Shown one piece after another: positions 55,647-64,000 of a stretch of 64,000 bases of DNA. Every line of letters starts with the position of its first letter. Within the stretch, counting starts at the first letter, position 1. Location: contig JAVZHQ010000001.1 in assembly GCA_038998335.1 (NCBI GenBank), forward strand, positions 352,001 through 416,000. Direction: 5' to 3'. Made by a program: the position numbers and the translations under genes. The DNA is from Candidatus Aenigmatarchaeota archaeon (GTDB taxonomy: Archaea; Aenigmatarchaeota; Aenigmatarchaeia; CG10238-14; SCSR01). The notes under the pieces were generated by a model. That model saw only the letters and a list, made by a program, of their open reading frames with translations. It had not been told where the DNA came from and ran no database searches.

Positions 55647-57193
<1,547 letters not shown>

Positions 57194-59389: not shown

Positions 59390-59566
59390 TATAAGAAATA
59401 GAAAGTAGAAGAATTTAAACCTTTTGACAAAAAGAGTCGTTAGGTTTCTAACACTTTAGAATTTTTAAACTATAAAGCCTTATCTCATAAGAACAAAGCT
59501 CCTTGAACTTAAAAACTTAAGGATAAAATTTTATCTTCATCTTAACTAAATTAGAAATAATTAATT

Positions 59567-59638
59567 GGGCCGGTAGATCAACGGTAGATCGCCTCGCTTG
59601 CAACGAGGAGGTTCGGGGTTCGAATCCCCGCCGGTCCA
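59567..59638 (+). tRNA. tRNA-Ala(TGC)
   Basis: GGGCCGG/CCGGTCC with G3:U70, CCTCG-CT-TGC-AA-CGAGG. Confidence 0.96.
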
Positions 59639-59712
59639 TACTCTTAATAAAAGTTATCGAGAAAATCCAAATGAGTTTAAAAATTTTTATTTTTAGTTGT
59701 AAATTAAATCAA

Positions 59713-60273
59713 ATGGAAGTCCCATCTTGGTATGTAATAACGGGAGAACCTTCTTCTGGTAAGACAACAATTTTAAAAAAATTGGAAGAATTAGGATACT
59801 TTGTTGTTCCAGAGACTGCAAGAATTTTGATAGATAAATATATCAAAAAAAGGTATACCAGCACAAAAATTAAGAAAAAACGAAAGTCGATTTCAAAAAC
59901 AAGTTTTAAAGTTGAAATTAAAAATTGAAGAAACTGTTCCTAAGGATAGAATTGTATTTTTTGACAGAGGTATTCCAGACAGTATAGCCTATTTCAAAAT
60001 TTGTGGGCTAGATACCAAGGAATTAGAAAAATATCAAGAAATAGATATAAAAAAATATTCTTTTTAGAGCAGCTACAATTCCAGCGAGATTATGTAAGAA
60101 TAGAAAATGAAGAAACTGTTAAAAAGTTAAATCAATTACTTCTGGAGACTTACAAAAATTTAGGCTACAACATTGTTCATATCCCAGTTTCTTCGGTTGA
60201 AAAAAGAGTAAGACTTATTTTTATTCAATTTATGATTTATTGGCACGGTATTGAAAAAATGTACAACTACTAA
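59713..60273 (+). pseudogene. AAA_28/NadR-like P-loop ATPase with two frameshifts
   Basis: ITGEPSSGKTT, VPETAR; middle segment FFDRGIPDS in shifted frame; C-terminal SVEKRV. Confidence 0.75.
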
Positions 60274-60409
60274 CTTTTTTAAAAAAAGGTTTCTTAACAA
60301 AAGTAAAACAAAAGCTTTAAATAGGATAAAGCTTTTAAATTATAAAAACTAATAAATTAGTTGCCGGTGTCGTTATGTCTGCTTAGCTTGAACATCGGCC
60401 TTTTTGTTT

Positions 60410-60467
60410 AGCTATGAGTTTGCCCTTCTAACTGATAAAAGATGAAGAAATGGGCACCTAACGAGCT
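60410..60467 (+). ncRNA. Box C/D sRNA A in 23S leader
   Basis: C ATGAGTT, D' CTGA, C' ATGAAGA, D ACGA; D guide antisense to A-loop 63499-63507. Confidence 0.8.
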
Positions 60468-60514
60468 TCCTTTGATGCGAATCCTTATTTTGATAATAAG
60501 GGTTTAAGAGTTGA

Positions 60515-60576
60515 GGTTGATGACTTGACTGACAGCGTCTGATAAAAGATGAAGAACGAACTGTCTTTATGAAACC
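60515..60576 (+). ncRNA. Box C/D sRNA B in 23S leader
   Basis: GGTT/AACC stem, C TGATGA, D' CTGA, C' ATGAAGA, D ATGA; both guides antisense to the peptidyl transferase centre (PTC). Confidence 0.85.
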
Positions 60577-62618
60577 AGAAGATGAAACTACCATAGGATA
60601 AGCTGGTCAAGAGGTCCTGGCAACAGTAGCCCACTTGGTGGATGGCTCGGCTTGGTTAGCCGAAGAAGGCCGTGCCAAGCTGCGATAAGCCTGGGTTATC
60701 CGCATGGAGGAGCTGACCCCAGGATTGCCGAATGGGATTCCTAGCCCGTTAAGGGCTATTTCGGAAGAAAAGGGAACGCGCCGAAGTGAAGCATCTTAGT
60801 AGGCGCAGGAAAAGAAATCAAACGAGATTCGGTGAGTAGGGGCGACCGAAAGCCGAACAGGACAAACCGAACTTTCTTTCGAAGAGGAAGAAAGGATGTG
60901 GAGTTACAGGACTTGGGCCTTTCCTAGCTTGCTAACCTGAAGTGAGCTGGAAAGCTCCACCATAGAGGGTGATAGTCCCGTAGGGGAAGGCAAGAAGGAA
61001 AATGCCAAGTCTCCTGAGTACCATTCCTTGGATATGGAGTGGGAATTTGGGTGGCATTAACATCCAATCCTAAATACTAACCAAGTCCGATAGCGGACTA
61101 GTATCGTGAGAGAAAGCTGAAAAGTACCGCGAAAGCGGGGTGAAAAGAGCCTGAAACCAAGTTGGGCATAGTCAGCTAGGGCATGAAAGGTGCTACTCCG
61201 AAGGAAATTCTCGCAAGAGAAGAGTACGAGGAGTAGCTTACAGTGTCCTAGCATCCGTTCTGAAAAACGGGGCAGGGAGTTTGCTCGAGTAGTGAGGTTA
61301 AGGGGTTTAAACCTCGAAGCCAAAGCGAAAGCGACAAGCCCGTAGTCTCGCAAGAGACGTGGGGCGGGGTGTGAAAGCGCCTGAAATTACTCGAGCAAGA
61401 CCCGAAGCCGGTCGATCTAATCCTGGGCAGGATGAAGTTCCTCGAAAGAGGAATGGAGGTCCGAACCGGTGCTGAGACCCAATCGCTCGGTTGACCCAGG
61501 ATTAGGGGTGAAAAGCCAATCGAGACCGGTGATAGCTGGTTCCTCCCGAAATGAGCGTCAGCTCAGCCTGGTTGGAGGTAAGCAGTAGGGTAAAGAGACT
61601 GATTGGACGGTCAAGGTGCGAAAGCATCAGCCGTCCTGTCAAACTCTGAATCTACTGCTGCCTGAGAAGACCGGAGTGAGGGTACTGGGTTAAGCTCGGT
61701 ACCCAAAAGGGGAACAACCCAACCTGGGGTTAAGATCCCTAAATGCCGGCTAAACGAAGAAGGGAGTCCAAATCCTTAGACAGCGGGGCTGTAGGCTTAG
61801 AAGCAGCCATCAGTTAAAAAGTGCGTAACAGCTTACCCGCCGAGGGTTTGGGCCCTGAAAATGGAAGGGACTAAGCCGGCTGTCGATACCCCAGACCTGC
61901 GAAAGCAGGGGGTAGGGAGGCGTTCTGCATGGGTAGAAGCTTGTTCGTGAGAACAAGTGGACCGTGCAGAATTGAAGATCCTGCCATGAGTAGCAGCATA
62001 GCTGGGTGAAAATCCCAGCCGCCTGAACCCTCAGGGTTTGCCAGCAATGTTCGTCAGCTGGCAGTTAGTCGATCCTAAGGGCGCTCTTAACCGAAGCGCT
62101 CAAAAGGGAAATCGGTTAATATTCCGATACCATGGAGGTACGTGCGGCAACGCAAGCTAGCTTTCCGACGTTTCGGGATAGGCCGACGCAAGTTAACTGC
62201 CGAAGCCTGCAGAGTCTCGTAACGAGGAGAAGCAGGTGAAAGCAGGAATAGCTCCGCGTATGCGGAGTTCGGCCGATTCCTGGAACCCGTGAAAAGGGAA
62301 GCTAGAAGGATCCTCCATGATCGTACCAAGAACCGACACAGGTAGGGTCGCTGAGAAGGCGAAGGCGTGTTGGGAGAACCCAATCCAGGGAAATCGGCAA
62401 ATTGGCCCCGTATCTTCGGTAGAAGGGGTGCCTGTTCTCTCGAAAGGGAGAACAGGTCGCAGTGACAAGGGGGAAGCGACTGTTTAACAAAAACACAGGA
62501 GACTGCTAGTCCGAAAGGATTTGTACAGTCTCTGAGGTCTGCCCAGTGCCGGTGTGTGAAACCCGGTTCCAACCGGGAGAAGCCCCGGCAAACGGCGGCG
62601 GTAACTCTGACCGTCGTA

Positions 62619-62664
62619 ACTCAGGGCGGTCATCTGATTTGATGATACGCCGCCTGGGCGACAT
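62619..62664 (+). other. 23S BHB intron (46 nt) at about 1927 with D'/C' K-loop
   Basis: GTCG-TA|A ... CGAC-AT|A. Confidence 0.9.
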
Positions 62665-62792
62665 AAGTAGCGTAATCCCTTGCCGTTTAATTGACGGCCC
62701 GTTCAACGGCTTAACGACTTCCCCACTGTCCTGGGTTGGGACCCAGCGAAAATGCTGTTCTGGTGAATAGGCCAGAGACCTCCGGTGGGAAA

Positions 62793-62823
<31 letters not shown>

Positions 62824-62976
62824 GCGTTGCTGTAAGGTTGAAATTGCATAGAGTAGCTGGGACTCGCTATTAGGCGCAGGCTTCGGCCGAGGCTGAGAGG
62901 AAAGTGTAACACCAGCCCTTTTCAACCTTACGGCTTACCCGTAAGGGGACAGCGTCAGATGGGCAGTTCGGCTGGG

Positions 62977-63060
62977 AGTTTAGGAGCTAGAATGAAGAGT
63001 CCCTTAAGTTATGAAAAAATGATTAAGGGCATACGGTCTGAACAGCTCCTAAACCAGCAA
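62977..63060 (+). other. 23S BHB intron (84 nt) in P-loop (2252/2253) encoding a full box C/D sRNA
   Basis: GCTG-GG|A ... CAGC-AA|G; removal restores GGCTGGGGCGG. Confidence 0.93.
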
Positions 63061-63115
63061 GCGGTACGCCCTTGGTAAGAGATCAAGGGCGCCCAAAGCT
63101 CAGCTCATCCGGGTC

Positions 63116-63212
63116 ATGTCAGAAGTTGAAGCTATGATTACACTGCTCCAGAATGATTTAAAGATGAGTATGGAGGTAGCTTATGAGCTTTCATCAACTT
63201 CTGACACCCGAA
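63116..63212 (+). other. 23S BHB intron (97 nt) at about 2306 encoding a full box C/D sRNA
   Basis: CGGG-TC|A ... CCCG-AA|A; removal restores CCGGGTCAGAAATCCGG. Confidence 0.92.
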
Positions 63213-63384
63213 AGAAATCCGGAGTAGAGTGTAAGCGCAAAAGCTGGGTTGATTGGATCCCGCAAAGCGAGGGATCCAAGGGCGAAAGCCTGGGCTAGCG
63301 ATACATCGGTTCGCCTTAATGGCGGCCGGTGGTATCAGAAAAGCTACCTCGGGGATAATGGGCCCGTGGCCGGTGAAAGCCCAC

Positions 63385-63427
63385 AGCTCAGGGGTTTTCA
63401 TCCCACTCGATAGCGACGAGCGGGTAA
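63385..63427 (+). other. 23S BHB intron (43 nt) at about 2477
   Basis: GCCC-AC|A ... GGGT-AA|A; removal restores AGCCCACATTGAC. Confidence 0.88.
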
Positions 63428-63526
63428 ATTGACCCGGCGCGTTGGTGCGTCGCTGTCGGCTCCCCCCCTCCTGGCCGTGCAGTAGCGGCCAAGGGTACAG
63501 GTGCCCACTGGTTAAAGGGGGACGTT

Positions 63527-63560
<34 letters not shown>

Positions 63561-64000
63561 GCTATCTACCGGAGGTGCTGGCTGTCTGACCGGAAGGATG
63601 GGTGAGTACGAAAGGAACACCCATCCGTGGCCTCTGGTCTACCGGTTGTTCATCGCACAGCCGGGCAGCTAAGCCATAGCGGATAAGTCCTGAAGGCATC
63701 TAAGGACGAAACCGCCCGGGAAAATAGGCAGCCAATTGCTCTGCTATTCCGCAAGGAACGGTAGAGCAACGAGGGCTCTCCTAGACGAGGAGGTTGATAG
63801 GAAGGGGGTGTACGCGCCAAGCTTTCGAGCGAGGCGTTCAGCCCGCCTTTCCTAATCGCCCGAGGTTGCCAGGACTTGATAAGCAGCTTATCCTATGGTA
63901 GTTTCAAAAGTTTTTTTCTAAAATAAAAAAGTTAAACTTTTTTTTCTTAATTTAATTTGTGAAGATTGAAGTGTACATAAGAAATAGAGAAGTTGAAATT

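Follow-up and report, generated by a model that had tools for sequence, protein, structure and literature searches.

The 23S rRNA locus and its leader

The window, i.e. the whole stretch of DNA that was analysed, comprises 64 000 nucleotides (G000:C1:352001-416000) of an archaeal genome of ~1.0 Mb with a G+C content of 33% and a completeness of 90%; near-identical DNA is contained in hot-spring metagenomes. Positions are given in window numbering unless a contig is named. The 16S rRNA (55647-57193), tRNA-Ala (59566-59639) and 23S rRNA (60614-63875) genes were located using Rfam. Three minus-strand open reading frames (ORFs) and several short plus-strand ORFs lie between the 16S and 23S genes, and the 23S gene therefore has an upstream region of its own. 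Three overlapping short plus-strand ORFs of 85, 51 and 90 amino acids between tRNA-Ala and the 23S promoter (59671-60273) look like the remnant of a frameshifted gene, the first carrying a P-loop-like motif, GEPSSGKT.

The putative promoter on the plus strand (60328-60344) was read from the sequence as a purine-rich BRE-like element, AAAGC, followed by the TATA box TTTTAAATTATA. The first leader hairpin lies ~19-30 nt downstream of this motif, and (A)AAG-TTTATAAAT occurs at the same distance in G012, G019, G024, G021, G020, G038, G029, G102, G093, G060 and G016. The 5′ leader hairpin (plus strand, 60363-60399; GCCGGUGU...ACAUCGGC, then a U-rich run) has a minimum free energy of -13.0 kcal/mol (z -2.35) and is conserved in the alignment. 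It is followed on the same strand by two tandem box C/D sRNA elements, E1 (60410-60467) and E2 (60515-60576), with a hairpin between them (plus strand, 60483-60501; CCUUAUU/AAUAAGG) whose stem persists in G029, G038 and G020 although its sequence differs there. Only 7 nt separate E2 from the pre-23S processing stem, the 5′ strand of which (plus strand, 60584-60621) is complementary to the 3′ strand (plus strand, 63868-63905) and carries a bulge–helix–bulge motif, with an outer helix at 60584-60605, the central helix UCAA at 60607-10, the bulge GAG at 60611-13 and an inner helix at 60614-21. E1 ends 147 nt upstream of the Rfam start of the 23S gene (60614) and also precedes the processing stem, so that its placement in the 23S leader, as claimed in an earlier note, is correct.

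Architecture of E1 and its match to the A-loop

E1 (AGCUAUGAGUUUGCCCUUCUAACUGAUAAAAGAUGAAGAAAUGGGCACCUAACGAGCU; delineated by alignment, 77 bits with covariance model R1) is closed by a 3 bp end stem (AGC 60410-12 with GCU 60465-67) and a UAU bulge (60413-15), in which A60414 and U60415 double as the first two bases of the C box AUGAGUU (60414-20). An 11 nt D′ spacer between C and D′ (60421-31) leads to the D′ box CUGA (60432-35), which is joined by a 6 nt linker to the C′ box AUGAAGA (60442-48); the 12 nt D spacer between C′ and D (60449-60, with its pairing part at 60451-59) leads to the D box ACGA (60461-64). All of these parts are on the plus strand. The layout is that of a k-turn (AGC-[UAU]-GA-GU/AC-GA-GCU), with tandem G·A pairs between the C and D boxes and the GA dinucleotides of both boxes kept. 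The boxes are off consensus (RUGAUGA for C and CUGA for D) but are mutually compensatory. The C-G and U-A pairs of the D′/C′ K-loop are present in six of the seven scored distinct rows, one row of eight being gapped. An alternative C′ box, AAGAUGA, with a 15 nt spacer was ruled out by relatives that lack GAUGA (G029, AAUGAAGA); in these C′ must be AUGAAGA, giving the canonical 12 nt spacer.

Searches with standard models left the element unassigned. A scan of the window at Rfam gathering thresholds returned only rRNAs and the tRNA, with no C/D family for E1 or E2, and an E-value scan of 60300-60620 gave SNORD5 (14.3 bits, E 8.5) and sR30 (9.5 bits, E 6) as the best C/D-box matches. A strict consensus regular expression for C/D sRNAs (NTGATGA...CTGA) had zero matches in the genome. 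Since the boxes are non-consensus, a structure-aware scan of the whole genome was used instead, and it found only three units, namely E1, E2 and one in a tRNA intron; five shuffled genomes gave 0-1 each.

The D guide of E1, UGGGCACCU (60451-60459), is the exact reverse complement of AGGUGCCCA (plus strand, 63499-63507) in the A-loop (helix 92) of the 23S rRNA. The nine pairs run from N+2 to N+10, and N+5 is A60456, opposite T63502. This position corresponds to Escherichia coli U2552 both in a MAFFT alignment with rrlH of MG1655 (invariant T72 in the row starting at 2481) and in the Rfam LSU_rRNA_archaea alignment, where it is the U of the consensus A-loop cUGUUC. The earlier reading of a complete 9/9 pairing that directs N+5 from ACGA to U2552 thus stands. 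On its own, however, the match is weak evidence, because 83 of 2000 shuffled guides reach a 9 nt match somewhere in the 16S and 23S rRNAs.

The target of the D′ guide had been called ambiguous, and we agree: its best rRNA match is 8 nt, a length equalled by 601 of 2000 shuffles, so that no target in 16S or 23S rRNA is better than chance. In single-sequence and consensus folds the partner of the D′ spacer is the 5′ half of the D guide, with which it covaries in part (column pair 18-55: CG 3, UG 2, UA 2, CA 2). Because the D guide is partly sequestered in this way, it may need opening. As the D′ spacer lacks a target and pairs with the D guide, E1 would work as a single-guide sRNA.

Conservation in relatives and covariation with the A-loop

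A BLAST search of 40 relatives found the leader in nine other genomes, and covariance model R1 detected E1 in 50 of 118 genomes from the order to which G000 belongs. Up to ~9.5 kb downstream of E1 was taken from 39 of the 49 matching genomes besides G000, giving 40 stretches. The E1 alignment has 48 rows; the A-loop was available for 43, four of these A-loops being on another contig owing to assembly breaks inside the 23S gene. Unlike the match alone, this comparison is decisive for E1.

The near-universal A-loop sequence is UGUUC. The order departs from it: most of its genomes have UGCCC or UGUCC, and UGUUC is found only in genus g13. The guide follows all three variants and matches the A-loop in 40 of the 43 testable rows. 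UGCCC is accompanied by the guide GGGCACC (nine rows) or, with a G·U wobble, GGGUACC (two rows), UGUCC by GGACACC (26 rows) or GGAUACC (one row), and UGUUC by GAACACC (two rows). The three unmatched rows (G024, G093 and G097) all belong to genus g20 and combine GGACACC with UGCCC, leaving a single A·C mismatch at N+7. Families f1 and f5 each contain the C as well as the U state, so at least three separate guide/target co-changes have taken place, a count that rests on family and genus labels and not on a tree. The guide end ACC(U/A) and the D box are a single nucleotide apart in each of the 48 rows, so that N+5 always falls on the equivalent of U2552. In G025 the A-loop reads GGGGUCC, with G at the U2552 position.

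The k-turn covaries as well. Positions 5-6 of the C box, which pair with positions 1-2 of the D box, vary together with these as GU/AC, AU/AU, GC/GU, GC/GC, UU/AU and UC/GU. Column pair 12-62 is CG in five and UA in three distinct sequences and unpaired in none; its covariation score of 0.221 was reached by none of 500 shuffles and is above all slid controls. The C/D architecture that had been assigned to 60410-60467 is thus borne out by its covarying k-turn positions. The D box ends in UA rather than GA in six of the 48 rows (G038, G112, G114, G117, G103 and G014), which should weaken the k-turn.

It could be argued that E1 is one of many hairpins of an AT-rich leader in which box-like words and a 9-mer complementary to rRNA have come together by chance, given how often shuffled guides reach 9 nt and how far the boxes are from consensus. 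Against such an accident stand the conservation of E1 in 50 of 118 genomes, the covariation both within the k-turn and between guide and target, and the three structured matches in the genome versus 0-1 in shuffles. Conservation and covariation have in practice refuted it already. The idea that E1 is a plain K-loop hairpin with mutually pairing spacers, like the 16S insertion described below, was overruled by the covariation with the A-loop. As a functional guide, E1 would bind the 23S rRNA, nascent or still in precursor form, through pairing of its D guide with nucleotides 2549-2557.

The distribution has gaps and outliers. E1 was found in none of the 11 genomes of genus g6, some of which have only 3-5 contigs; FtsJ is also absent there, and E1 is therefore dispensable or replaced in this genus. 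Matches to a degenerate pattern in bacterial genomes, one Methanosaeta record and one Poseidoniales record had no R1 score and were taken as chance. A 3 kb contig labelled Hadarchaeum scores 74.6 bits with R1 and may be mis-binned.

E2 and the fused and split guides

E2 (plus strand, 60515-60576; delineated by alignment, 88 bits with covariance model R2) follows the design of E1 (GGUU-[GAU]-GA ... AUGA-AACC). Within the element and on the same strand, the end stem GGUU/AACC with its GAU bulge encloses the C box AUGACUU (60520-26), D′ box CUGA (60539-42), C′ box AUGAAGA (60549-55), D guide CGAACUGUC (60557-65) and D box AUGA (60569-72), with spacers of 12 and 13 nt. The end stem covaries (GGUU/AACC, GGUC/GACC and GGCC/GGCC), and the C-G and U-A pairs of the D′/C′ region are kept in 10 of 10 rows. 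As in E1, the D′ spacer is without a target and pairs with the D guide. In homologues of E2 in some genera (L098, L103, L104, L108, L112 and L120) the D′-C′ linker is enlarged by a hairpin insertion of 30-70 nt.

The D guide of E2 is nearly invariant (two rows have CGAGCUGUC and one has CGAACUGUA). It matches 10 nt of helix 93 (plus strand, 63548-63557; AGACAGUUCG, E. coli 2598-2607), a match equalled by 22 of 2000 shuffles. With the usual 13 nt spacer N+5 is 63550, equivalent to A2600; with the 12 nt spacer of three rows (G010, G020 and G029) it is C2601. E2 would thus act on helix 93 (A2600) as E1 would on the A-loop.

The same two guides recur in another arrangement. In all nine rows of family f4 (L102, L106, L113, L117, L119, L124, L125, L127 and L128) the two are united in one sRNA, in which CGAACUGUCUCU, directed at helix 93, is the D′ guide (N+5 = A2600) and the D guide is the one for the A-loop; the BRE/TATA motif of f4 lies immediately 5′ of this sRNA. 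Family f1 has a separate single-guide sRNA for each, arranged in tandem. That the same guides occur fused in one family and split in another is hard to explain unless both are functional.

Transcription and processing of the leader

A 170 nt metatranscriptome contig of run X10 (depth 3.66) covers 60439-60608, starting inside E1; it carries two alleles of the sister genome G001, i.e. it derives from a relative. Run X10 has no cover of 60000-60438, although gaps in contig cover prove nothing. A second X10 contig, of high depth, matches from 60612 onwards, and its overhanging 5′ portion corresponds to the 3′-terminal 23S sequence as far as 63882. This permuted junction fits a circular pre-23S intermediate formed by bulge–helix–bulge cleavage and ligation. 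The contigs show the bulge–helix–bulge in use in a close relative, DNA carry-over being possible in the library; with the same reservation they put the leader in an RNA library, and they give neither RNA ends nor continuity between leader and 23S. A scan for bacterial-type signals was uninformative, giving one promoter-like site on the minus strand and no terminators; between E1 and the 23S gene it placed neither a promoter-like nor a terminator-like site.

The arrangement suggests that E1 and its target come from one transcript. E1 could then act in cis, before bulge–helix–bulge cleavage frees the leader, or in trans, after trimming to an RNP of ~57 nt.

RNP proteins and the missing RlmE

The genome encodes the proteins of a C/D RNP: Nop5 (C1:769150-769791; PF01798, 230 bits) and, adjacent to it, fibrillarin (C1:769832-770470; PF01269, 282 bits), as well as L7Ae (PF01248, 109 bits). 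The genome was also searched for rlmE/ftsJ, the check that the earlier note had proposed, and neither G000 nor the 118 genomes of the order yielded a true FtsJ/RlmE. In G000 there is no full-length FtsJ domain (PF01728), the best match being 27.4 bits over model positions 14-64; the proteins concerned were rejected as FtsJ since they score 76-90 bits to Methyltransf_25/11 or 172 bits to RsmB/F. Across the order the best match (41 bits) is a Methyltransf_31 protein, and the recurrent matches of ~310 amino acids are RsmB/F at 184 bits. As G000 is only 90% complete, the absence of RlmE/FtsJ from it is likely and not proven.

Covariation proves pairing and not catalysis, and one may ask whether E1 and E2 serve as antisense folding chaperones whose pairing with nascent 23S rRNA, at the A-loop and helix 93, holds the peptidyl-transferase centre open, or times its folding, with no methyl transfer. 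Both lie within the precursor of their target and are aimed at neighbouring helices of domain V. The E2 guide-to-D-box distance varies (13 nt, or 12 nt in the three rows noted above), which shifts N+5 from A2600 to C2601, and PMC3608112 discusses archaeal C/D sRNPs as possible chaperones. An antisense role alone, however, would constrain neither the guide-to-D-box register of E1, which is invariant in 48 of 48 rows, nor the C′-D spacing, which at 12 nt is the catalytic requirement. Fibrillarin and Nop5 have been retained in a genome of only ~1 Mb, and U2552 is a near-universal methylation site whose usual enzyme is missing here. We therefore regard pairing with no methyl transfer as unlikely.

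The reading of E1 as a guide for methylation is preferred. That E1 is a true box C/D guide RNA of archaeal type, carried by the 5′ leader of the 23S primary transcript, has in our view a probability of roughly 80%, which applies to the whole reading including the methylation of U2552. Fibrillarin would 2′-O-methylate this nucleotide, replacing the stand-alone RlmE/FtsJ that is absent from the lineage. The pairing of E1 with the A-loop appears better supported than the methylation, because covariation shows the pairing directly; the methylation of U2552, the co-transcription of guide and target as one molecule and the action in cis are what we infer from it and from the setting.

Relation to known systems

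In other domains the conserved A-loop uridine is 2′-O-methylated by snR52 or Spb1 in yeast (Um2921) and by RlmE (FtsJ) in bacteria (Um2552); eukaryotes use a guide RNP for it, and bacteria a stand-alone enzyme. In this lineage the search for FtsJ-family enzymes was negative, and a guide RNP would be the sole means of modifying the uridine. For an uncultured, genome-reduced lineage without RlmE, E1 offers a concrete way of obtaining the ribose methylation that is most conserved in ribosomes.

Archaeal guides for the same nucleotide have been described. According to the section of the paper that deals with the A-loop, C/D sRNA guides to its first nucleotide (E. coli U2552) are predicted in five of the archaeal species studied (Dennis et al., 2015; PMC4644070). 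E1 shares with these the RNA class, the RNP proteins, the target nucleotide and the N+5 rule. The sRNAs of that section are from cultured thermophiles and are not described there as parts of pre-rRNA, whereas E1 lies in the 23S leader, guides through its D guide only, has non-consensus boxes (AUGAGUU/ACGA) and faces a divergent A-loop, UGCCC in place of UGUUC.

Leader-borne and precursor-borne elements are known as well. In Thermococcus kodakarensis the 16S-tRNA-23S operon is remarked to have a snoRNA-like RNA, Tko-19, in its leader (Jaeger et al., 2014; PMC4247193). Compared with this brief description, E1 is likewise a C/D-type sRNA gene in the leader of an rRNA transcription unit; Tko-19, for which no target is named there, precedes the 16S gene of a linked operon, whereas the 23S gene that E1 and E2 precede is unlinked and encodes the rRNA at which both are aimed. 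The intron of archaeal pre-tRNA-Trp contains a C/D guide for methylation of the very precursor to which it belongs (Clouet d'Orval et al., 2001, as cited in PMC7994747). Like this guide, E1 is embedded in the precursor of its target and would be released by bulge–helix–bulge processing; from the account given in that citation, the pre-tRNA-Trp guide has a tRNA target and an intronic site, whereas E1 has an rRNA target, a leader site and a cis action that is only putative. The genomic contexts of sRNAs enumerated in the review PMC7994747 (section 9) are own promoters, ORF overlaps, clusters, tRNA-sRNA dicistrons and tRNA introns, and an rRNA leader is absent from that enumeration. Our literature search, of imperfect coverage, returned no leader-borne archaeal A-loop guide besides the remark on Tko-19. 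The U2552 guide and the leader-borne sRNA each have precedents; because U2552 guides are known, Tko-19 is the sole, thin precedent for the leader and Rfam gives no match, E1 is best described as a new family within a known class.

The locus is of interest mainly because guide and target have co-evolved cleanly at a divergent A-loop, because RlmE has apparently been lost and because the guides are embedded in precursors in fused or split form. Comparative proof of the use of a predicted archaeal guide is seldom as clean as in this co-evolution of guide and target, where the A-loop has left UGUUC. With two, perhaps three, guides embedded in the precursor that they target, and with sister families in which guides are fused or split, the locus makes a natural test system, which could address co-transcriptional, cis-acting rRNA methylation in archaea and the evolution of dual-guide sRNAs.

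E3, K-loops and intron-borne units

The possible third guide, E3 (plus strand, 63128-63191), is a C/D-like unit inside an insertion of ~101 nt (about 63117-63217) at the tip of a hairpin in 23S domain V. The insertion is closed by a 12 bp stem, GUCAGAAGUUGA/UCAACUUCUGAC. The D guide of E3, UGGAGGUAGCUU, matches 10 nt at 63341-63350, with N+5 at 63345 (E. coli U2438), a match reached by 11 of 2000 shuffles. E3 is conserved in five genomes, and its R1 score has an E-value of 0.008.

An identical D′/C′ loop of 17-18 nt, CUGAUAAAAGAUGAAGA, occurs at three sites of the rRNA region, 60432 in E1, 60539 in E2 and 56403. The last of these caps the hairpin of a 79 nt insertion in the 16S gene (56383-56461, in the E. 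coli ~795 region, between ...CCCCGGUA and GUCCUAGCC...), in which there is no recognisable C/D pair or guide. This insertion is probably an intron or expansion that binds L7Ae.

Recurrence of one loop, a copy of it with no recognisable C/D pair or guide and D′ spacers that are targetless and paired with the D spacers would all be expected if E1 and E2 were L7Ae-binding k-turn/K-loop modules for leader processing or pre-rRNA stability, with the complementarity to rRNA as a by-product. This would leave unexplained the three-state covariation of guide and target, which counts strongly against it, the reuse of both guide sequences in the other arrangement of f4 and the significant D-guide matches of E2 and E3 (22 and 11 of 2000 shuffles, respectively). 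We consider such a protein-binding role, with no guide function, very improbable, well behind the guide reading.

A wider form of the guide reading extends it to this order of DPANN archaea, with precursors that carry their own guides: E1 for U2552, E2 for A2600, E3 for U2438 and C/D units in tRNA introns. Modification of the catalytic centre would then be hard-wired in cis, before bulge–helix–bulge cleavage; the target-like D′ spacers would be intramolecular lids on the D guides until the RNP or the target sequence is made; and the fused forms of f4 and split forms of f1 would record the birth or the division of dual-guide sRNAs. We offer this extension tentatively and consider it rather doubtful as a whole.

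Introns in three tRNA genes of G000 hold C/D units or a K-loop: tRNA-Ser(UGA) (G000:C1:281225-281370, 59 nt intron), tRNA-Ser(CGA) (G000:C1:504696-504833, 53 nt intron) and tRNA-Leu(UAA) (G000:C1:556995-557113, 46 nt intron), with C/D units present in the tRNA-Ser introns. Within the 23S gene, a K-loop, CUGA-UUU-GAUGA (62634-62645), caps a GGCGG/CCGCC stem and may be a native L7Ae site or another insertion, and the tip of helix 89 has ~45 extra nucleotides (63384-63428). In many relatives the 23S matches are split at the window equivalents of 63534/63535 and 63548, which suggests frequent rRNA introns beside the peptidyl-transferase centre in this order. Just upstream of the tRNA-Ser(UGA) gene stands GACUCAAGG, which is complementary to the anticodon arm of that tRNA and is followed by a CUGA-AUAAA-GAUGA loop.
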